A DNA stretch of 31,371 nt from positions 1-31,371 of the forward strand of contig JAAFIJ010000002.1 in the NCBI GenBank assembly GCA_013298675.1. The letters are read 5' to 3'. Of the stretch, positions 15,621 to 25,598 are shown in pieces. Below the pieces are notes generated by a model. It had not been told where the DNA came from, did not search any database, and saw only the letters and a program-made list of their open reading frames with translations. The translations under genes and the position numbers were made by a program. This DNA comes from Rhodobacterales bacterium (GTDB lineage Bacteria > Pseudomonadota > Alphaproteobacteria > Rhodobacterales > Rhodobacteraceae). Each line of letters starts with the position of its first letter. Position 1 is the stretch's first letter.

Positions 15621-16622
15621 TTAAATCATTTCGCTCATCTTGACGACACGACCCTCTTTCACAGACAAGACCGCTGCATCCGCCAAAGCAAGGGCAATCA
15701 ACCCGTCCTCGCCCGATGGCTCTGCCTTGCCTTTGCCACCCAAAGCCGCAATAAATTGCGCAATCTCTGCGGCGTAAGCCTCGGTATAGCGGGTCATGAA
15801 AAAGTCGTGCAGGGGCGGACGGGTATAGCCCGCACCAGTTGCGACCTCAATCGATACGGGGCGCTGATTTTCGGCACTGACCGCACCTTTGGACCCGTGC
15901 ACTTCGATCCGCTGATCGTAGCCGTAGGTGGCACGGCGCGAATTTGAAATCATCGCTTGCTTACCTGATTTGGTTTTCAACAAGACTTGAACGGAATCGA
16001 AATCGCCCGCAGCACCGATGGCTGGATCGACCAGAACCGCCGCGGTTGCAACCACTTCGGAAATCTCCTCGCCCAGCAAAAAGCGGGCCATGTCAAAGTC
16101 ATGGATGGTCATATCACGGAATATGCCGCCCGAACGCTTGATGTAATCCACCGGAGGCGCACCTGGATCGCGGCTTGTGATCACAGCCATTTCGACGTCA
16201 CCAATCGTGCCCTTGTCAATTTCGGCGCGAACGGCGCGGAAATGCGGGTCAAAGCGGCGGTTAAATCCGACCATCAGCGTGCCCTTGTGCTTGCGCACCA
16301 CTTCAAGACAGCTTTTCACCCGCGCAAGCGACAGATCAATCGGCTTTTCGCAGAAAACAGCGATGCCCGCCTTGACGAACTTTTCGATCAAATCGGCATG
16401 CGTGTCGGTGGGGGTGCAAATGACCACCGCATCGATATCCTTGGCCGCAAGAATGGCCTCAATGCTGCGCACTTCGCAGCCATAAAGATCAGCGATCGAT
16501 TTTGCCGCCGCAGGCATCGCATCGGCCACAGCAACCAGCGTTGCGTTGCTGTCGGCTGACACGGCCTTGGCATGCACCTTACCAATACGGCCAGCGCCCA
16601 AAAGTCCGAACCTTACAGTCAT
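15621..16622 (-). CDS. iolG: Inositol 2-dehydrogenase (Gfo/Idh/MocA family)
   Basis: GAGRIG Rossmann motif, FCEKPID, VGFNRRFDP, SRDPGAPP..YI..SGGIFRDMTIHDFDMARF, SRRATYGYDQRIEVHG. Confidence 0.93.
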   Translation of the reverse strand: MTVRFGLLGAGRIGKVHAKAVSADSNATLVAVADAMPAAAKSIADLYGCEVRSIEAILAAKDIDAVVICTPTDTHADLIEKFVKAGIAVFCEKPIDLSLARVKSCLEVVRKHKGTLMVGFNRRFDPHFRAVRAEIDKGTIGDVEMAVITSRDPGAPPVDYIKRSGGIFRDMTIHDFDMARFLLGEEISEVVATAAVLVDPAIGAAGDFDSVQVLLKTKSGKQAMISNSRRATYGYDQRIEVHGSKGAVSAENQRPVSIEVATGAGYTRPPLHDFFMTRYTEAYAAEIAQFIAALGGKGKAEPSGEDGLIALALADAAVLSVKEGRVVKMSEMI

Positions 16623-16723
16623 ATCCGTCTCCTTCTTGGGAACATCCCAAAATCAATTTAGCTTTTCTGTCTGATTGCCTTGGCTCACAATCCAAAGTGG
16701 TCCAAAGCGCGATCGGGAAGATT

Positions 16724-17488
16724 TCAGGCAGCCGCACCTTCGCTGCCCTTGACCCCGGTAATATAGGACACAATGTCATTGCCATCAGTTTCATCGCGGC
16801 GCAAGCTTGCCACGATGCGACCGCGACGGAAAACCACGATGCGGTCAACCAAATCAAAGACTTGGCGCAAGTTATGGCTAACCAGGATCAACGGTACACC
16901 ACGCTCTTTCAAGCCACGGATGATGTTTTCCACCTGTGCGGTTTCCTGCACGCCTAGTGCTGCAGTCGGCTCATCCATGATGACCAGCTTTGACGCAAAA
17001 GCCGCGGTGCGCGCGATAGACACGCATTGGCGCTGACCGCCCGACATATTGCGGATCGGGTTGTCGACGTTGGGAATTTTCACCGCCGTGGTCTTCAGCG
17101 CCTCTAGGGTACGCTCACGCATGGTTTTGCGATCAAGAATAGAAAACGGTCCAAGGCGCAATTTGTACAACTCTCGCCCCAAGAACAGGTTCGAGGGAAC
17201 ATCCAGATCGTCTGCCAAGGCAAGCGTTTGGAACACGGTTTCAATGCCCGCCTCACGTGCCTGCAACGGGCCTGCAAAGCTGACGTCTTGGCCGTCAAAG
17301 AAAACCTTTCCGGCAGTACGTTGCTCGACGGCAGTGATCTGGCGCACAAAGGTCGATTTGCCAGCACCGTTGTCGCCCACGACCGCAACGTGTTCACCCG
17401 CGCGCAAAGTAAAGTTGGCATCGTCCAACGCATGCACACCGCCGTAATGCTTGGTCAGACCGCGCGTCTCAAGAATGATATCGCTCAT
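16724..17488 (-). CDS. Sugar (CUT2) ABC transporter ATP-binding protein, single domain
   Basis: GDNGAGKST Walker A, MSGGQRQ signature, IMDEPTAALG, VSHN. Confidence 0.95.
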   Translation of the reverse strand: MSDIILETRGLTKHYGGVHALDDANFTLRAGEHVAVVGDNGAGKSTFVRQITAVEQRTAGKVFFDGQDVSFAGPLQAREAGIETVFQTLALADDLDVPSNLFLGRELYKLRLGPFSILDRKTMRERTLEALKTTAVKIPNVDNPIRNMSGGQRQCVSIARTAAFASKLVIMDEPTAALGVQETAQVENIIRGLKERGVPLILVSHNLRQVFDLVDRIVVFRRGRIVASLRRDETDGNDIVSYITGVKGSEGAAA

Positions 17489-17491
17489 CGC

Positions 17492-18562
17492 TCAGCTCCT
17501 CGCCCGGCCTTTTTGCCGCCATTGGTCCAGCACAACTGCACTGATGATGATCACGCCTTTGACCATTTCTTGATAATACGCGTCCAGTTTCAAGAACGTG
17601 AACCCAGAGATGATCACGCCGAAAATTAACGCACCAATCACTGTGCCGACGATAGACCCGCGCCCGCCCTGCAAGGATATGCCGCCGATGACTGCCATCG
17701 CGATGGCGTCAAGTTCGTACATCACCCCCATATTCGCTTGCGCCGTTTGGCCTTTGGAGGACACGACGATGGCCGCGATAGAGGCAAGCATCCCGGCAAT
17801 GACATAGACCAGCACCTTGTGGCGATCGACATTGATCCCCGACATCCGGGTGGCTTGTTCATTAGAACCAATGGCATAGCTGTGCTTGCCGTATCGGGTA
17901 TAGGTCATGATGAGATGAAACAGCACCGCCAAAGCGATGAACACAATCACCGGGCGCATCCCGGTGCCGATGGCATTATAGCTTTCGGTTGGAAAGGAAA
18001 TCGGGTTACCAGTCGACCACCAGCGCGCAAAACCCCGCGCCGAAACCATCATACCTAACGTGGCGATGAACGGCGGGATTTTGGTATACGCGATCAGCGC
18101 GCCATTGATCAAACCTGCCAGCATACCCACGCAAAGCCCGATCAAGATTGGCAGCAGAACCGGCAAATCCATTGCCCATTCGCCAAAAATCGCTTTGGGA
18201 TTGGGGTTGCCGTTGACCAACGCTGTTTGCGCAAAACTCATGGCGACCATGGCTGTCGCGCCAACAATGGACCCTGACGACAGGTCTATGCCACCGGTAA
18301 TGATCACTTGGGTTACGCCCAAGGCGATGATGCCAACTGTGGCCACTTGCAAAATAATGATTGAAAGGCGCTGCGTGTTGAACAGACCTTCAGTGCCTTC
18401 ACGGGTGTTAAACAAAAAGCTTTCGCCAATGATCAGGCGGCCCAGCAGTTCAAACACCACAACGATGATGACAAAAGCGATGAATACGTTGAACTCTTGA
18501 GGTCGCGCCTTTTTCGTGGGGTCATATTTCAACCCCCCAAGGCCATGTGTCGGCTCTGTCAC
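17492..18562 (-). CDS. Sugar (RbsC-type) ABC transporter permease
   Basis: IITGGIDLSSGS, IPPFIATLGMM, YAIGSNEQATRMSGI, YELDAIAMAVIGG.SL.GGRGS. Confidence 0.95.
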   Translation of the reverse strand: MTEPTHGLGGLKYDPTKKARPQEFNVFIAFVIIVVVFELLGRLIIGESFLFNTREGTEGLFNTQRLSIIILQVATVGIIALGVTQVIITGGIDLSSGSIVGATAMVAMSFAQTALVNGNPNPKAIFGEWAMDLPVLLPILIGLCVGMLAGLINGALIAYTKIPPFIATLGMMVSARGFARWWSTGNPISFPTESYNAIGTGMRPVIVFIALAVLFHLIMTYTRYGKHSYAIGSNEQATRMSGINVDRHKVLVYVIAGMLASIAAIVVSSKGQTAQANMGVMYELDAIAMAVIGGISLQGGRGSIVGTVIGALIFGVIISGFTFLKLDAYYQEMVKGVIIISAVVLDQWRQKGRARS

Positions 18563-18631
18563 GTCGCTCTCCCCCGATGTGAACTCGTGTCTTAGTTTGG
18601 CTGCATTTTCCGGCGCAAGCCAGAAGAAATA

Positions 18632-18657
18632 GGGGGCAGCGTTTGCACACTGCCCCC
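18632..18657 (-). terminator. Hairpin/terminator after the substrate-binding gene (intra-operon)
   Basis: Minus strand GGGGGCAG-N10-CTGCCCCC followed by TATTTCTT, a typical arrangement for raising SBP mRNA above permease mRNA. Confidence 0.65.
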
Positions 18658-18675
18658 ACCCAAACAGGTTAAGGA

Positions 18676-19617
18676 TCAGTTCTTGTTGGCGTAGTCTGCA
18701 ACATTCGCAGGGGTCACCAATTGGAACGGAATGTAGACTTTCTGCTCAACTGCTTCGCCCTTCGACAGCTTGATCGCTGCGTCCAATGCGCCTGAGCCTT
18801 GACCAGCCGCGTCCTGGAACACGGTCACGTCCAGATCGCCTGCCTGCATGGCCGCAAGCGCGTCCTGAGTCGCGTCAACGCCGCCAACCACGACAGTCGC
18901 CATGTCGATGCCAGCAGCTTTCAGCGCCTGAATTGCGCCAATAGCCATTTCGTCGTTGTTTGCAATCACGCCATCAAATGCAGTACCTGTGGACAACCAG
19001 TTGGTCATCAGGGTTTGTGCCTGATCACGGCTCCAGTTGGCGGTCTGCTCGTCAATGATCGTCAACTCAACTGCGCATTTGCCAGCAGCCATCACGTCAT
19101 GGATGTCGGCGGTACGCTGAACGGCGGCTTGGTTGGAAAGTTCGCCCATCATGACATAGACCGATGCCTTGTCTTTGCCTGCCGCTTTCAACTGCGCGCA
19201 AACTTCGATGGTTTCCAACGTGCCCGAGTCTACTTCATTCGACGCCACAAACGCCTGATTGTCAGGCAAGCTGTCGACGTTGATCGGCTGACGGTTCACA
19301 TAAACCAGCGGGATGTTCGCTGCAGCGGCCGCGTCGGACATCGCTTGGGTTGCCGAGGTGTCAACCGCGTTGACAATGATTGCCGAAACGCCAGACGCGA
19401 TGAAGTTGTTGATCTGGTCCAACTGCTTGGCCACGTCATTTGCCGCGTCTTCGATCTGGATCTCGACACCCAATTCCGTTGCTTTGGCATCCAAGCCGTT
19501 ACGCAGAACGGTCAGGAAGTTATCGTCAAACGCCGCCATGGAAACGCCGATGCCGTCTGCCATCGCGCTGGAGCCCATAAGTGCTGCAAACCCAGCGATG
19601 ATCAAAGTTTTTTTCAT
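18676..19617 (-). CDS. Sugar ABC transporter periplasmic binding protein (RbsB-like; probable inositol/cyclitol binding)
   Basis: Signal peptide MKKTLIIAGFAALMGSSAMA, FDDNFLT, PLVYVNR, IANNDEMAIGA, GGVDAT, FQDAAGQG. Substrate inferred from context. Confidence 0.92.
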   Translation of the reverse strand: MKKTLIIAGFAALMGSSAMADGIGVSMAAFDDNFLTVLRNGLDAKATELGVEIQIEDAANDVAKQLDQINNFIASGVSAIIVNAVDTSATQAMSDAAAAANIPLVYVNRQPINVDSLPDNQAFVASNEVDSGTLETIEVCAQLKAAGKDKASVYVMMGELSNQAAVQRTADIHDVMAAGKCAVELTIIDEQTANWSRDQAQTLMTNWLSTGTAFDGVIANNDEMAIGAIQALKAAGIDMATVVVGGVDATQDALAAMQAGDLDVTVFQDAAGQGSGALDAAIKLSKGEAVEQKVYIPFQLVTPANVADYANKN

Positions 19618-19699
19618 ATCTAGTCCTCCACTAAAGGTGTCCGGCACACCGTTCTCTCCCACCGGACCGCCGGTTAAGGCGGTTATTCGCTTGCCGCCC

Positions 19700-20509
19700 T
19701 TAGGCGGCAACACCTTGCCGAATGAACTCCATAGAGGCACTCAGCGCAGATTTCGGATCGCGCAATGCATGAACACTGGGCGCAAATGGTTCATAGGAAA
19801 TCGGGCCCTGATACCCCGCGGCGCGCAAAGCGCGGATCTGGGCCACGTTGCCAAGCAGGTCGTTGCCATCAACCAAAACGCGGTGTGGATCGCGCATGTC
19901 GTTGACGTAAAGCGAGGCATCGACCACGCCCGATACATGGACAATTCCGGTCAGGTCCGGGTAGATCGGGCCACCCCCTGCCAAGGCGTGGTGGAAGGTG
20001 TCATGGACGATGAAGTAAGTTCCACGCCCGTCGACGGAATCGATCACCTCGGCAAGGATGTCTTTGTAACGCAAGGAACAAACCTCAAAGCCTAACGGCT
20101 CAACCATGGCTTTCAGACCATGCGCTTTTAGCATCGGCAGCAGTTCCGAAAGGGCCAGATGTGCCGCCGCACGACTGTCGGCACGGCTGGTGGCCACCCC
20201 ATCGTTGCGCGGGATCAAGCTGATCGCTTCGGCCCCCGCAGCAACCGCAATTTTCATCAACGCGTCAGCCTCGGCGCGTTTCACAGGCGACCAATCGTTG
20301 AACATTTTGACTTCAGCCAACGCCAGAAACCGCAAGCCACGTGCCTTTACGGCCGCGCCAACCGTGACAGGGTCCGCGCCACTAAAAAGTGTTCCGGGCA
20401 GGTCATTTCGAAATTCAACACCAACACATCCTAGGTCTTTGGAGAGGTCCAAGAACGCCTCCCAACCCAAATTTGGGGCTGTCATGTGATTTAGGGCAAA
20501 AGGCAGCAT
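19700..20509 (-). CDS. TIM-barrel sugar-phosphate isomerase/epimerase family protein (inosose isomerase IolI/IolH-like)
   Basis: VEFRNDL, MVEPLGF, HDTFHH, VHVSG, HRVLV, ISYEPF metal-binding pattern of the AP_endonuc_2 family. Confidence 0.85.
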   Translation of the reverse strand: MLPFALNHMTAPNLGWEAFLDLSKDLGCVGVEFRNDLPGTLFSGADPVTVGAAVKARGLRFLALAEVKMFNDWSPVKRAEADALMKIAVAAGAEAISLIPRNDGVATSRADSRAAAHLALSELLPMLKAHGLKAMVEPLGFEVCSLRYKDILAEVIDSVDGRGTYFIVHDTFHHALAGGGPIYPDLTGIVHVSGVVDASLYVNDMRDPHRVLVDGNDLLGNVAQIRALRAAGYQGPISYEPFAPSVHALRDPKSALSASMEFIRQGVAA

Positions 20510-20550
20510 TCAGGGCAATCCTCAACGACTCGGGCCATTATTACCCGCTT

Positions 20551-20566
20551 TGGTATTTTTATTCCA
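20551..20566. promoter_or_regulatory. Putative IolR-type operator upstream of the TIM-ABC-iolG operon
   Basis: Minus strand TGGAATAAAAATACCA, a one-mismatch GGAA-N6-TTCC, about 40 nt upstream of the operon start. Further GGAAT half sites at 20574-20578 and 20590-20594. Confidence 0.5.
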
Positions 20567-20611
20567 TTTTTAAATTCCGGCAATCAGAAATTCCAACCTG
20601 CTGCATTTGTC

Positions 20612-20629
20612 TGACGATTTTTGACGATA
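20612..20629. promoter_or_regulatory. TGACGAT direct repeat (10-bp period), putative operator of the local LacI regulator
   Basis: TGACGATTTT-TGACGAT. The same motif recurs at 21746-21763. Confidence 0.5.
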
Positions 20630-20679
20630 TTTCTTGCTGCCTTTTTTCACAGTGCTACAATTAGACACTGAGACCATCG

Positions 20680-21705
20680 TCAAATTGATTCCGCCAAGTG
20701 CAAATCAGGCGCAAGAAAATGCTGGATACCGCCACGCGTGGCACCGCCAATTGCGGTGCTTGCCATCGTGTTAAGCAGCGCGCGGCACAGCTTTTCAAGC
20801 GGTGTGTCGATAACCATTGTCACCAGACCTTCGGCCAACCCTGCGCGTGATTCAGGGGTGAACGCCGAAACGACCATGGCCAGATTGCCCTTTGGCCGCG
20901 CCTCACGCAGGGCAGAGATCGCGCCTTCCATTCCACCGCCAGAAACGTAAATGCCGCGCAGGTCTGCATGGCGGGACAACAGGTTTAGCGTGGCCTCATA
21001 GGTCAATTGCCGGGTCTCTAGGTTAACCAGTGTGTCCAAAACTGACAGATGTGGCGCGCATTCGCGCAAGTATCCGCGAAAACCCGTCTCGCGCAGTTCG
21101 TGGCCGTGAAACCGGTGACCACCGATGAAAACCGCGACAACGCCCGGCTTTTTGATGGTTTGATGCATGACCCAGCCTGCGGTTCTACCAACTTTCAGAT
21201 TGTTCAGACCAAAATAACCCGCCCGAGCCCCTTGCGCGAAGTCTGTCAGCAAAGAGAATGTTGCCAACCCTTTGGCCGATAACTCTTCAACTGCTGCAGT
21301 AACTTCAGGATGGTTAACGGCTGTTGCGGCGAGGATATCACAGCGCCCTGCCATGGATCGTAAAGTCGCAGCCATCTCGCCTGGGGCTTGGCTGGGCGAA
21401 AACTCTAGTATCAGACGCCCACGCACACCCGGAACAAGGCTAACGGCGCGACGCAGTTCTTCTGCGAAAGCCTTATAGAAATCCTGACCTTGCTTGTGCA
21501 GCACAACGCCAAAGCGCAGATCACGAATGCCGTTGGGTTCCGGCGCAAGCCTGCGGGCTGCCGGATGCCCTATCCGTTCGGCGGCAGCCAGCACAAGTGC
21601 GCGGGTGTCGCCGCTTACCGCCTCACGACCGTTCAAGACACGGTCAACCGTTGCAATAGACACGCCTGCTTCGCGGGCAAGTTCAGCCATACCATGACGT
21701 TTCAT
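20680..21705 (-). CDS. LacI family transcriptional regulator
   Basis: N-terminal HTH MAELAREAGVSIATVDRVLNGR plus periplasmic-binding-protein-like effector domain. Confidence 0.93.
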   Translation of the reverse strand: MKRHGMAELAREAGVSIATVDRVLNGREAVSGDTRALVLAAAERIGHPAARRLAPEPNGIRDLRFGVVLHKQGQDFYKAFAEELRRAVSLVPGVRGRLILEFSPSQAPGEMAATLRSMAGRCDILAATAVNHPEVTAAVEELSAKGLATFSLLTDFAQGARAGYFGLNNLKVGRTAGWVMHQTIKKPGVVAVFIGGHRFHGHELRETGFRGYLRECAPHLSVLDTLVNLETRQLTYEATLNLLSRHADLRGIYVSGGGMEGAISALREARPKGNLAMVVSAFTPESRAGLAEGLVTMVIDTPLEKLCRALLNTMASTAIGGATRGGIQHFLAPDLHLAESI

Positions 21706-21745
21706 TGAATCTCCATGACGAAAACACATCATCCGAACGCCCAAC

Positions 21746-21763
21746 TTGACGAAGTTTGACGAT
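21746..21763. promoter_or_regulatory. TTGACGA direct repeat (10-bp period) in the lacI/mocD divergent region
   Basis: TTGACGAAGT-TTGACGAT, plus another ATGACGAA at 21715-21722. Confidence 0.5.
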
Positions 21764-21790
21764 AAACACCAGCGTCACACTTGGCACGCA

Positions 21791-21806
21791 TAGAATAATT
21801 CTTCTA
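21791..21806. promoter_or_regulatory. TAGAA-N6-TTCTA inverted repeat (IolR-like) inside the putative mocD promoter
   Basis: TAGAATAATTCTTCTA lies between TTGGCA (21781) and CTATCT (21804), a 17-nt spacing. Confidence 0.45.
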
Positions 21807-21835
21807 TCTTCGCAAAAAGCGGTTCGGAGGGCACA

Positions 21836-22918
21836 ATGACAACCAGAGACTATTCAATGCTGGGTGAAGACGGTCGGCGCGCTGTGGAAACGGGCCTTGC
21901 CGCCGCAGAATGGTATCACACAGAGGTTTCCCGAAAGGTGATGAAGGATCTGATGCAGCGCAACGATAAGGCTGCAATCGTCGACACGTTGATACTGTAC
22001 GGCGCAATGATTGCCCTCGCCGCGGCCGGTATCGCGCTGTGGCCCAGCCTGTGGAGCGCGCCGTTCTGGCTTGTTTACGGTGTGTTGTACGGGTCTGCCT
22101 CTGACAGCAGGTGGCACGAATGCCAACATGGCACCGCGTTTAAAACCCCGTGGATGAACGAAGTGGTCTACCAGATCGCCTGCTTTATGATCGTGCGCAA
22201 CCCAAACACTTGGCGGTGGAGCCATGCGCGGCATCACACCGACACCTATATCGTTGGCCGCGACCCAGAGATCGCCATCATGCGGCCCCCGGCGTTTGCC
22301 AAGGTCATCGCCAATTTCTTTGGTCTTGTGGATAGCTATAACGGTTGGGCGCGGATGCTCTTGAACGCAAGCGGACGGATCCATCCCGAAGAAGCCACGT
22401 TTGTGCCCCCGGCAGAATTTAAGAAGGTGATATTCGTCGCCCGCGTTTGGGTGGTGATCTATGCAGCCACTTTTGCGCTGGCCTATATGATCGGGTCGAT
22501 TCTGCCGTTGATGGTGATCGGATTGCCGCGTCTTTACGGTGCTTGGCATCACATCATGACAGGGTTGCTGCAGCACGGTGGGCTTGCCGACAATGTCACC
22601 GACCACCGTCTGAATGCCCGCACCGTATACATGAACCCTTTCTCGCGCTTTGTTTATTGGAACATGAACTACCATGTTGAGCATCACATGTTCCCGATGG
22701 TGCCCTATCACGCGTTGCCAAAGCTGCATGCGTTGATCAAGCATGACTTGCCCGCTCCTAATCCCAGCATCGCGCATGGGTTCCGCGAGATGTGGCCAGC
22801 GCTGAAACGCCAGTTGCACAATGAAGAGTACTACGTCCGGCGTGTTTTGCCTGCTTCGGCCAAACCATACCGCGAAGATTTCCACCAAACGGCATTAGGC
22901 CAAGTTGCAGGAGAATAG
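21836..22918 (+). CDS. mocD: MocD-like membrane di-iron oxygenase (fatty acid desaturase/hydroxylase family)
   Basis: Three His boxes WHECQHG, HARHH, YHVEHH plus LLQHGG, hydrophobic segments, and an adjacent MocE ferredoxin. Confidence 0.85.
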   Translation: MTTRDYSMLGEDGRRAVETGLAAAEWYHTEVSRKVMKDLMQRNDKAAIVDTLILYGAMIALAAAGIALWPSLWSAPFWLVYGVLYGSASDSRWHECQHGTAFKTPWMNEVVYQIACFMIVRNPNTWRWSHARHHTDTYIVGRDPEIAIMRPPAFAKVIANFFGLVDSYNGWARMLLNASGRIHPEEATFVPPAEFKKVIFVARVWVVIYAATFALAYMIGSILPLMVIGLPRLYGAWHHIMTGLLQHGGLADNVTDHRLNARTVYMNPFSRFVYWNMNYHVEHHMFPMVPYHALPKLHALIKHDLPAPNPSIAHGFREMWPALKRQLHNEEYYVRRVLPASAKPYREDFHQTALGQVAGE

Positions 22919-22921
22919 ATG

Positions 22922-23236
22922 ATGTCAAACTGGGTAGATGCCTGCTCCACCGAAGATATCGAGGCCGAGGACCTGATCCGTTTCGATCACGGCGGCGCCA
23001 CTTACGCGATTTATCATGCCCCGGACGGAGCGTTTTTCTGCACTGCAGGGCGATGCACCCACGAAGACATTCACCTCGCCGATGGGCTGGTGATGGGTCA
23101 CCTGATCGAATGCCCCAAGCATAACGGTCAGTTTGATTACCGCACGGGGGAAGCAAAGCGCGCACCCGTCTGCATCAATCTGAAAACCTATCCGGTAAAG
23201 GTCGAAGGCGACCGCGTTCTTATTCAGGTGGCATAA
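22922..23236 (+). CDS. mocE: MocE family Rieske [2Fe-2S] ferredoxin
   Basis: CTHEDIHLADGLVMGHLIECPKH (CxH...CxxH); about 104 aa. Confidence 0.9.
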   Translation: MSNWVDACSTEDIEAEDLIRFDHGGATYAIYHAPDGAFFCTAGRCTHEDIHLADGLVMGHLIECPKHNGQFDYRTGEAKRAPVCINLKTYPVKVEGDRVLIQVA

Positions 23237-24027
23237 TGGCACGTCCAACCGTTTTTGATCTGTTGGCCAATCGTGGTCGCCACCAATATGCCATGCTGCG
23301 GGTGGAAACATTGGCTGAGGCAGAGGCCGCCTGGCTTGCCGGAGTGGAGTTGTTTTCGGTGCCGGCCGCGATGATCATGGACCGACGCTTTCGCGAAGTC
23401 GCCCCCAATGCTTTTGCTTTCCCGGGCGACAATTTTTATGAAATCGGTGGCACAGATGATTTCCTGCGATGGGCCTTTCCGTTGTTCAAGAATGGTGCCG
23501 ACGGTGTTTATTGTTCTGGGTCATTGCAAACCGTCCGCGCGCTGTCCGATCACGGCATTCCGGTGTGCGGCCATGTTGGACTGATCCCATCCAAGGCCAC
23601 GTGGACTGGCGGGTTCAAGGCTGTGGGCAAAACGCTCGATTCCGCCAAACGCGTCTGGGATCAATGCCAAGCCTTGCAAGAGGCCGGAGCGTTTGCAGTT
23701 GAGATTGAGGTGGTGCCACATTCGATCACTGCGGCGATTGCGGAAAAGACCGATCTTTTCCTGATCTCTATGGGTGCGGGACCGGCAGGTCATGCGCAGT
23801 ATTTGTTCAGCGATGATGTTTTGGGCCAGAATACTGGCAAAGTGCCACGCCACGCTAAGGTTTACGCGAACTTTGCTGCAGAACATGCGCGCCTGCAGCA
23901 ACTGCGCATCGCTGCAATGTCGGCCTTTGCGCAGGACGTGCATTCGGGTCAGTATCCGGCACCCCAGTACCTTGTCGATAGCGAAGCAGAGGTCGTCGCG
24001 GCATTTCGCGACTGGTTAAACGGCTGA
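23236..24027 (+). CDS. Divergent 3-methyl-2-oxobutanoate hydroxymethyltransferase (PanB)-like protein
   Basis: GIPVCGHVGLIP, GGFKAVGK, AGAFAVEIEVVP, ISMGAG, DDVLG, AF..DV.SGQYP match PanB. The N-terminal GDS and KxEGG motifs are missing. TAATG coupling to mocE. Confidence 0.85.
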   Translation: MARPTVFDLLANRGRHQYAMLRVETLAEAEAAWLAGVELFSVPAAMIMDRRFREVAPNAFAFPGDNFYEIGGTDDFLRWAFPLFKNGADGVYCSGSLQTVRALSDHGIPVCGHVGLIPSKATWTGGFKAVGKTLDSAKRVWDQCQALQEAGAFAVEIEVVPHSITAAIAEKTDLFLISMGAGPAGHAQYLFSDDVLGQNTGKVPRHAKVYANFAAEHARLQQLRIAAMSAFAQDVHSGQYPAPQYLVDSEAEVVAAFRDWLNG

Positions 24028-24033
24028 CAAACG

Positions 24034-24284
24034 CGTTTAGCTAGCGGCGCCACTAACGTAAGTTATTCTGCCCCGGAAAGTGCGTTTTCCTATATCGCAG
24101 GGTGCAGCACGCTCGAAGCCTTTCATCCTGCCGACGGGCTGGTGATGGTCACCTGATCTAATGCCCCAAGCATACCCGCCGTTTCGACGATCGCACAGGT
24201 GAGGCAAAGCGCGCACCGGTCTCAAAGAACCCAACAGCCTTTCCCGCCAAGGCTGAAAGCGGACCGGTCATTCTTTGGCTATGA
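24034..24284 (+). pseudogene. Degenerate second copy of mocE (5'-truncated)
   Basis: Aligns by eye to 22979-23236 (e.g. gccgacgggctggtgatgg-tcacctgatctaatgccccaagcat vs gccgatgggctggtgatgggtcacctgatcgaatgccccaagcat). Has a 1-nt deletion, a GAA>TAA stop, and altered Rieske ligands. Confidence 0.85.
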
Positions 24285-24383
24285 CTTAGATCCAACGGCC
24301 AATATCCATAGAAAGCTAAACAGCCAAGCAAGGAACTCACCCTCATTGGCGCAATCTAGTTTGCGCGCGTTGCACCCCCTATT

Positions 24384-25280
24384 TTAACCTGCTGCCAAAT
24401 GCTTGGTTAGGAAAGCGGCAGTGGGAAGCAAAACCGCATCCGCATCAAAATCGCCACCGCCATGACCAGCACCGGGAACCAACGCAAAATCAACTTCGAC
24501 GCTGCTATCTTCTGCGGCCCATGCGTCTGCAAGACGTTCGCTTTGAGTAGGAGCAATCAACGGATCATCGGCGCCATGGCGGATCATCAACGGTGGCAGG
24601 TGAAGGCCGGGCAGGGTAGCCAACCGGCCAATTGGGCCAGCAGCATTCGCCTTTTCGCGATTTTCGCCGACTGGATAACCCAGCAACGCCGATTCTGGGC
24701 TGGTTGCCACGTCCGCAGCGCCCATTGCGGCGGTTTTCCCCAAGGCGGTCATATCGCTGTCCATGCTGCCAAATTCCATTGGGCCAAAGAAATCGATCAC
24801 GGCTTGTGGTGGCTGCCCAGCCGCGACCAATGACAGCGCAGCGCTGACTGCGAGGAACCCTCCAGCGGATTGGCCCCAAAGCGCCATACGAGACGGGTCG
24901 ATGCCGTAGTCGCCACCATTTTTCCTAAGGAACCCTACAGCGGCAAGGCAGTCGTCCAGCTGTGCAGGCCAGATGTCTGTGTCGGTCAGACGGTAGTTGA
25001 TCCGTACAATTGCCACACCGGCCACGAGGATCTGTTCACTGGCCGCCGACATCGTCTTGCTGCCCATCTTGAAGGCCCCACCGTGAATATCAACGACAAA
25101 GGGGTGCGGGCCGGGACCAGCGGGAAGGTAGACGTCGAGCTTGTGCCGCTCACCCGTTCCATAAGCGATGTCAGAATGATCAGGGCTACGCATGTTATAC
25201 CTTTGCCAAAGATTGTACCCGCCTGCTGTTGCGCCTGCCGCGATCAACGCCAGAGTTGCGCGCCTTGTCAAATTTGTCAT
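24384..25280 (-). CDS. Alpha/beta hydrolase (HSL/BD-FAE-like esterase) with twin-arginine-type N-terminus
   Basis: LTRRATLALIAAG; IHGGAF, GQSAGG, HGADD, GAGHG catalytic motifs. Confidence 0.88.
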   Translation of the reverse strand: MTNLTRRATLALIAAGATAGGYNLWQRYNMRSPDHSDIAYGTGERHKLDVYLPAGPGPHPFVVDIHGGAFKMGSKTMSAASEQILVAGVAIVRINYRLTDTDIWPAQLDDCLAAVGFLRKNGGDYGIDPSRMALWGQSAGGFLAVSAALSLVAAGQPPQAVIDFFGPMEFGSMDSDMTALGKTAAMGAADVATSPESALLGYPVGENREKANAAGPIGRLATLPGLHLPPLMIRHGADDPLIAPTQSERLADAWAAEDSSVEVDFALVPGAGHGGGDFDADAVLLPTAAFLTKHLAAG

Positions 25281-25367
25281 ATTAGCCAGTCCCAATTGCT
25301 CTCATCCATCCGATCGAACGCCAGTAGTCCAAAGTTCCGTCGCAAAATAACACAAATTTCTGAGGTA

Positions 25368-25598
25368 CAAATACTCTGTCAGTGCAGCGCCTGCTTGGGC
25401 CAGGCAGCAAAGGGCTGCGCCAAATGCCAAGGTATATGCAGACTTCGTGGCCGAACATGCGCGCCTGCAGGAACGCCGCATCGCAGCAATATCGGCCTTT
25501 GCGCAGGCGTGCATTCGGATCGGTATCCGGCACCCCAGTACCTCATCGATAGCGAAGCAGAGGTCGTCGCGGCATTTCGCGACTGGTTAAACGGTTAA
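25368..25598 (+). pseudogene. Degenerate copy of the 3' third of the PanB-like gene
   Basis: Aligns to 23797-24027 with indels (gcgcagg-cgtgcattc vs gcgcaggacgtgcattc). Ends with the same ...DSEAEVVAAFRDWLNG*. Confidence 0.9.

Follow-up and report, generated by a model that had tools for sequence, protein, structure and literature searches.

Methylated inositols, among them pinitol, ononitol and quebrachitol, rank with the main solutes of plants and algae. In marine Bacteroidota, the methyl group of 6-O-methyl-galactose is reportedly removed oxidatively by a P450, a ferredoxin and a reductase, a reaction coupled to formaldehyde detoxification. For methyl-inositols, the searchable literature describes only a fungal P450-type demethylation route and an enterobacterial case said to need none (PMC9788770), and mocDEF are named, as a unit of the rhizopine locus, among the genes of rhizopine (3-O-methyl-scyllo-inosamine) catabolism (PMC10107442). 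Here we analyse a 31,371-nucleotide stretch of DNA, hereafter the window, from a Rhodobacterales bacterium of the family Rhodobacteraceae (contig JAAFIJ010000002.1 of assembly GCA_013298675.1; C112 in our numbering). The locus of interest places a single LacI-family gene between a unit for cyclitol uptake and oxidation and an operon encoding a MocD-like membrane oxygenase, a MocE-family Rieske ferredoxin and a protein related to the pantothenate enzyme PanB, referred to as PanB-like. The means by which bacteria demethylate methylated inositols is not established, and a widespread module would give this step a genetic handle. The carriers of the module are freshwater Rhodobacterales and rhizobia, including the model strain S. 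meliloti 1021; Tabrizicola aquatica RCRI19, Rhodobacter amnigenus HSP-20 and Neorhizobium galegae are further carriers in culture.

We read the locus as a LacI-repressed system that imports and breaks down inositol-type cyclitols, O-methylated forms among them, and in which the oxygenase would demethylate the substrate and the PanB-like protein would serve as a non-essential one-carbon helper. We put the probability of this reading at roughly 45%.

Layout and conservation of the locus

Gene calls were made from the Pfam and NCBIfam profile scores of the window proteins against curated cut-offs. The features, including an ATP-binding cassette (ABC) transporter, are listed below.

15621-16622, minus strand: iolG, inositol 2-dehydrogenase of the GFO/IDH/MocA family (TIGR04380, 417 bits, cut-off 355)
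16724-17488, minus strand: ABC ATPase with a single ABC domain, sugar (CUT2) type (PF00005)
17492-18562, minus strand: ABC permease, RbsC/MglC type (PF02653, BPD_transp_2, 157 bits); start codon provisional
18632-18657, minus strand: GC-rich hairpin with an 11-bp stem, directly past the binding-protein gene (terminator scan)
18676-19617, minus strand: periplasmic solute-binding protein with signal peptide (PF13407, Peripla_BP_4, 170 bits)
19700-20509, minus strand: xylose-isomerase-like TIM barrel, IolI-related (PF01261, AP_endonuc_2)
20612-20628, plus strand: direct repeat TGACGA-N3-TTGACGAT, candidate operator upstream of the TIM/ABC/iolG operon (exact match)
20680-21705, minus strand: LacI-family regulator with LacI helix-turn-helix and Peripla_BP_4 ligand domains (PF00356 and PF13407); start codon read from the sequence
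21747-21763, plus strand: the direct repeat again, in the lacI-mocD intergenic region (exact match)
21836-22918, plus strand: mocD-like membrane di-iron oxygenase, FA_desaturase family (PF00487, 116 bits)
22919-23236, plus strand: mocE, MocE-family Rieske [2Fe-2S] ferredoxin (TIGR02377, 165.2 bits, cut-off 136.15)
23236-24027, plus strand: PanB-like protein, PanB fold without the magnesium/keto-acid half-site (matches only positions 96-258 of the 259-position PF02548)
24044-24275, plus strand: remnant of a second mocE, disrupted by a stop codon and a frameshift (78% identical at the nucleotide level to 22992-23171)
25407-25594, plus strand: remnant of the 3' end of another panB-like gene (87% identical at the nucleotide level to 23837-24023)

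The nine genes, their divergent arrangement around one LacI gene, the 1-nucleotide overlap of mocE and the panB-like gene and the common TGACGA repeats are all as an earlier note on this DNA had described them. The minus-strand unit is transcribed in the order TIM barrel, binding protein, permease, ATPase, iolG, and lacI, also on the minus strand, separates it from the plus-strand mocD-mocE-panB-like operon. Within this operon the mocE ATG directly abuts the mocD stop, and the mocE stop and panB-like start overlap as TAATG. MocD carries the His boxes HECQH, HARHH and HVEHH together with two long hydrophobic stretches, and MocE a CTH...CPKH motif.

The layout was followed in relatives by tblastn with the window proteins, in a scan of one genome per species that covered 80 loci encoding PanB-like relatives (L numbers below refer to loci). 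LacI divergent from mocD-mocE-panB-like is found in about 70 of the 80, across Rhodobacterales and Hyphomicrobiales, and in nearly all of those with long enough contigs. Most of these loci also contain the TIM barrel, binding protein, permease and ATPase, and often iolG, a synteny far above chance. The earlier note had held that its proposal would fall if mocDE-panB homologs occurred apart from iol genes elsewhere; the trio in fact co-occurs with iolG, the IolI-like TIM barrel and the ABC genes in two orders. The rhizobial orthologs of MocD that were sampled (L076, L078, L088 and L094) share 63-69% identity with it. In Hyphomicrobiales a 408-residue Pyr_redox_2/Reductase_C protein (MocF) lies between mocE and the panB-like gene. 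In S. meliloti 1021 the corresponding genes are SMb20817 (LacI), SMb20818 (annotated mocD), SMb20819 (mocE) and SMb20820 (mocF), with an adjoining panB-like gene. SMb20817-20820 appear only as co-expressed neighbours (PMC11387232), and the searchable literature yielded nothing for SMb20821, nothing on a PanB-like partner of mocDE and no paper linking a PanB paralog to demethylation.

The direct repeat occurs without mismatch at 20612 and 21747, against a chance expectation of about 0.01 matches. About 20 close relatives retain the mocD-side copy, some 100 nucleotides before mocD, and in the window it abuts a promoter-like site at 21781-21810. The copy before the TIM/ABC/iolG operon has an equivalent position in L018 and L036 and stands in reverse orientation in L030. 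The sequence supports a predicted circuit in which one LacI regulator connects the genes for cyclitol uptake and oxidation with an operon for a MocDE-type oxygenase that has a non-canonical PanB-like gene in last place. Four freshwater or sediment metatranscriptome runs contain contigs with fragments at least 95% identical to all genes of the locus except lacI and mocE, and read depth over the binding-protein segment exceeds that over the adjoining genes 10- to 50-fold. This excess depth fits the strong hairpin directly past the binding-protein gene and suggests that the binding-protein segment of the message is stabilised, or that its downstream part is attenuated.

The host assembly comprises 2.69 Mb in 371 contigs and is 92% complete, and the organism is closest to Rhodobacterales from fresh water, for example Cypionkella, Gemmobacter, Tabrizicola and Rhodobacter. 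The window iolG is the only match in the genome above the TIGR04380 cut-off, and iolB (339 bits) and iolD (887 bits), both on contig C360, and iolC (401 bits, contig C211) also lie above their cut-offs. The best iolE match in this fragmented assembly is weak, at 182 bits against a cut-off of 290. A reading as cyclitol uptake and oxidation, already proposed in the earlier note, is supported by iolG above its cut-off, the IolI-related TIM barrel and the presence of iolB, iolC and iolD elsewhere in the genome. No reductase gene was found in the window, and a MocF-type reductase homolog, 42% identical over its full length, is located on contig C301. A further cluster on contig C179 (8176-12893) of the host genome (G000) holds iolB-like, iolC-like and iolE-like genes with two GFO genes, all under the equivalog cut-offs, and may serve another cyclitol.

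The TIM barrel has no NCBIfam match. Against PDB sequences its family profile is closest to 2q02 and 4hgx (1.6e-52), both uncharacterised, followed at a distance by B. subtilis IolI (1i60, 2.8e-11). The searchable literature yielded nothing for STM4435, presumably the protein named IolI2, or for 4YO7. The closest solved relative of the binding protein is 4yo7 (1.6e-51), ahead of Caulobacter 4irx (4e-28); both are presumably myo-inositol complexes. The rhizopine binding-protein model NF052284 gives the window protein only 39 bits against a cut-off of 420. The statement in the earlier note that the window has no rhizopine mocABC genes holds only in part: the rhizopine-specific binding protein and a MocR-type regulator are indeed absent, but iolG, the binding protein and possibly the TIM barrel share families with MocA, MocB and possibly MocC, respectively.

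The window ATPase, with one ABC domain in 254 residues, aligns with the first half of RbsA, YtfR and XylG. In the orthologous loci of rhizobia a pair of adjoining ATPase matches appears instead, which points to a two-domain form there. Downstream of the intact operon, the decayed mocE copy gives tblastn matches in two frames with a stop inside, and an alpha/beta-hydrolase gene (24384-25295, minus strand) lies between it and the panB-like remnant. The decayed mocE-panB-like copy at 24044-25594 looks like an old duplication or rearrangement scar.

The PanB-like protein as a partner of MocD

The PanB-like protein has thousands of close homologs, all labelled PanB, and its name in the databases is 3-methyl-2-oxobutanoate hydroxymethyltransferase. 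It falls under both NCBIfam PanB cut-offs (TIGR00222, 97 against 207.55 bits; NF001452, 116 against 272 bits). The AlphaFold model (predicted local distance difference test score, pLDDT, 94) retrieves PanB alone among its top 28 Foldseek matches, at a template modelling (TM) score of about 0.7 and 25-27% identity, and its ESM Atlas clusters are likewise PanB-named only. Residues were mapped by hhalign from a 27-member family alignment onto canonical PanB, including the E. coli K-12 protein, whose numbering is used here. In the PanB-like family D45 and S46 are replaced by alanine, D84 by glycine and K112 by tyrosine, E114 is deleted, and about 20 residues past D45/S46 are deleted as well. H136, E181 and D217 are kept as H113, E158 and D194, invariant in all 27 members, and E156 and H206 are new invariant residues. 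The PanB motifs GH(V/L)GL.P, GG(F/Y)(K/R)..G(K/R), E.VP (containing the E181 equivalent), G.G and D..G are conserved. In the 1m3u work, the lost residues are reportedly those that bind magnesium and the carboxylate of the keto acid, with E181 facing the hydroxymethyl group. By this alignment, the enolate-stabilising half of the PanB site is gone, and the remainder, including the GG(F/Y)(K/R)..G(K/R) loop, is conserved.

Relatives such as G009 and G006 hold a full-length canonical PanB besides the PanB-like paralog, which argues that the latter is not a pantothenate enzyme. Its systematic annotation as one distorts predictions of vitamin-B5 auxotrophy for genomes that carry it. Sought by the Rosetta-stone approach, fusions of the PanB-like protein to other domains were, apart from probable chimeras, limited to L137 (1748-3376; P0127), a 542-residue fusion of a full canonical PanB domain with a PanB-like domain. 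This is a single record on a short metagenome contig and may be an artefact of assembly or gene calling.

The association of the PanB-like gene with MocD extends well beyond the orthologous loci. With MocD-like genes and PanB-like genes each mapped independently across 150 genera of the family, about 30 of 60 MocD-like genes (at least 40% identity) had a PanB-like gene within 3 kb, and pairs just 28-36% identical to the window proteins still adjoin. Gene orders among the distant pairs include mocD-panBL-mocE, mocD-panBL and panBL-mocD-mocE (panBL being the panB-like gene), next to other transporters, a GcvT-like protein, a TauD/GBBH-like dioxygenase or a sugar kinase. The MocD and PanB-like trees of 30 adjacent pairs are broadly congruent; the PanB-like protein has co-diversified with MocD-type oxygenases in many contexts. 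A complex prediction for MocD with the PanB-like protein scored 0.00, which counts neither for nor against binding.

The partnership is asymmetric. Both genes are present in 29 genomes, MocD alone in 15, the PanB-like gene alone in 6 and neither in 101, these genomes being related and the counts therefore not independent. The PanB-like gene is seldom found without MocD, whereas MocD often lacks the PanB-like gene, as in 15 of the 44 MocD-bearing genomes. Four contiguous orthologous mocDE loci (L097, L099, L101 and L102) have neither the PanB-like gene nor a replacement, only unrelated neighbours, and one of them, L099, carries the whole ABC/TIM/iolG set. In L129, L130 and L115, MocD falls inside the window clade (support 100) and the PanB-like protein in a separate lineage (support 97), a mismatch which indicates that the PanB-like gene was replaced there by a divergent paralog. 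Judged by these gene contents, the PanB-like protein is a dispensable, non-essential partner of the oxygenase.

Two distant modules have neighbours of their own. L103 (8539-11942; G148:C37) reads mocD-like, PanB-like, mocE and then a GcvT-type folate aminomethyltransferase, and both L103 and L106 (G090:C7) adjoin znuA/znuBC zinc-uptake genes, which may reflect chance or zinc-linked regulation. The host genome has a GcvT-like gene 74% identical to that of L103 at the start of contig C96 (156-1256), with its upstream neighbours cut off. Among the fetched loci a GcvT-like gene stands beside the module in L103 only, so there is no general linkage to folate genes.

Proposed mechanism and its alternatives

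From the gene set we infer a substrate, a demethylation step and a role for folate. The binding protein, permease and ATPase would import the cyclitol, whose O-methyl group MocD would hydroxylate with electrons from MocE and a reductase encoded elsewhere, for which the MocF homolog on C301 is a candidate. The resulting hemiacetal would collapse unaided to free inositol and a one-carbon unit at the level of formaldehyde. IolG would then oxidise the inositol, the IolI-like TIM barrel would isomerise the inosose, and IolE, IolD, IolB and IolC, encoded elsewhere, would complete the pathway. The PanB-like protein most likely would capture the one-carbon unit as 5,10-methylene-tetrahydrofolate, given that it appears to keep the half of the PanB site facing the hydroxymethyl group and folate. 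The ability of the oxygenase to work in the absence of this protein, the interchangeability of PanB-like paralogs between modules and the loss of the enolate site together favour an accessory enzyme acting on the oxidised methyl carbon, with O-demethylation preferred, and fit an essential, substrate-specific retro-aldolase less well.

In Bacillus, IolG and IolI are the pair that brings D-chiro-inositol into the iol pathway. Since D-pinitol is 3-O-methyl-D-chiro-inositol (PMC9788770), pinitol is the neatest candidate and would be the best-fitting example substrate. The failure of the binding protein in the rhizopine model, together with the LacI type of the regulator, makes a methyl-cyclitol without an amino group probable. 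A more specific proposal, that the PanB-like family is an undescribed class derived from PanB by deletion of the enolate half-site and loads the carbon released by MocD directly onto tetrahydrofolate, is possible but doubtful. If true, the PanB-like protein would be a folate counterpart of the formaldehyde-activating enzyme, joining the catabolism of methyl-ether sugars and cyclitols to the one-carbon pool, and a folate-dependent formaldehyde catcher would be a new enzyme function.

Several observations weigh against demethylation with a folate-linked helper. Demethylation by MocDEF is itself a genetic model only, and the iolG/ABC operon may be no more than the organism's general inositol operon. 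The apparently kept folate half of the PanB-like site rests on motif conservation, the folate site of PanB not being established, and a novel catalytic or metal site could be built from E156 and H206. In L028, L041 and L077 the gene immediately downstream of the PanB-like gene encodes a GFO dehydrogenase, an arrangement that may mean the protein acts on an oxidised sugar or cyclitol and not on free one-carbon units. In L084 (6613-10780), from a Mesorhizobium metagenome-assembled genome, a GFO/TIM-barrel fusion and DUF4432 precede a PanB-like gene with no MocD within 10 kb, a context that fits poorly with a purely oxygenase-dependent role; the PanB-like genes of L086 and L069 lie in similar sugar loci with no oxygenase nearby. 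L103 already encodes a folate enzyme of the GcvT type, beside which another folate-dependent protein for catching one-carbon units would be redundant.

In an unlikely alternative, MocDE is no demethylase and hydroxylates or desaturates a carbocyclic or sugar substrate, such as a deoxy-inositol, at some other position, and the PanB-like protein is an enolising isomerase, epimerase or lyase that works on the keto intermediate so formed, with no link to one-carbon units. MocD belongs to a family that spans many reaction types, including desaturation and hydroxylation, and no MocD is known with a solved structure or an assay. Moreover, PanB-like genes occur in sugar loci beside dehydrogenases and TIM-barrel isomerases, and MocD/PanB-like modules adjoin several different transporters. 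Yet the sole genetic information on the family concerns a methylated inosamine (PMC10107442), the PanB motifs that survive are ones unconnected with the keto acid, and the asymmetry of the genome counts is easier to account for with a PanB-like protein that serves the reaction of the oxygenase.

Slightly less probable again is the route put forward in the earlier note. It would start from a C-methyl inositol, for example laminitol or mytilitol, whose methyl group MocDE would hydroxylate; a GFO dehydrogenase or IolG would make the adjacent ketone, and the PanB-like enzyme would remove the hydroxymethyl group by retro-aldol cleavage. Such a step resembles the PanB reaction run backwards, E158, which corresponds to the PanB base E181, does not vary in the family, and E156 and H206 could rebuild a metal site. 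Because GFO dehydrogenases often adjoin PanB-like genes, both directly downstream in the three loci named above and beside a second PanB-like paralog in L040, and because L084 joins GFO and TIM-barrel genes to a PanB-like gene away from any oxygenase, we keep this route at a low probability. The evidence nonetheless does not support it, as every residue of PanB that binds magnesium or polarises the carbonyl, and with them the keto-acid ligands, is lost or deleted across the family. Furthermore, the MocD product would meet a dead end wherever the PanB-like enzyme is missing, which is the case in orthologous mocDE loci and in about a third of the MocD-bearing genomes, and the divergent paralog beside an orthologous MocD argues against tight substrate specificity. 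C-methyl inositols are also rarer than O-methyl forms in the plant, soil or freshwater habitats of the carriers.

That the gene is instead the organism's own PanB for pantothenate synthesis, placed in the operon by chance, is rejected as highly improbable: it is the only PF02548 match in the 92% complete assembly and bears the database name, but it scores under both PanB cut-offs and lacks D45, S46, D84, K112 and E114, neither panC nor a canonical panB was found in this assembly, canonical PanB exists beside it in relatives, and the gene is fixed downstream of mocE in dozens of genomes.

Comparison with known systems

The likeness of the window locus to the moc (rhizopine) locus of S. meliloti L5-30 and R. 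leguminosarum lies in a membrane His-box di-iron protein with a MocE-family Rieske ferredoxin, joined by the MocF reductase in the Hyphomicrobiales orthologs. In both, a GFO/IDH/MocA dehydrogenase, a periplasmic binding protein and the iol pathway go together with the oxygenase, and a regulator gene stands among divergent units with direct-repeat boxes in two promoters. The window locus differs in its LacI-type rather than MocR-type regulator, the absence of a reductase in cis, a binding protein that fails the rhizopine model and an extra, translationally coupled PanB-like gene. A single binding protein, that of Mesorhizobium kowhaii (G165), scored above the cut-off of the rhizopine model, and its gene has no mocDEF within 10 kb.

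With the Bacillus-type iol pathway for myo- and D-chiro-inositol (IolG, IolI, IolE, IolD, IolB and IolC) the window shares the IolG equivalog and the IolI-related TIM barrel, whereas in the host the genes are spread across several contigs, an ABC transporter takes the place of IolT in uptake, the iolE match is weak and a putative demethylase arm is added. The 6-O-methyl-galactose system of marine Bacteroidota would be alike in principle, in that a monooxygenase strips an O-methyl group from a carbohydrate before ordinary catabolism and the released formaldehyde needs a dedicated sink. Here, in contrast, the oxygenase is of the His-box di-iron type and not a P450, the formaldehyde sink would be another one, and the galactose system is not known to involve a PanB-like protein. 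To PanB itself (EC 2.1.2.11; 1m3u, 1oy0, 3vav) the PanB-like protein is joined by a common TIM-barrel fold, as modelled, but its gene is never beside panC or panD in the loci covered here and sits instead in catabolic operons with oxygenases. On these sequence comparisons, the locus is a widespread, mis-annotated variant of the moc/iol theme.

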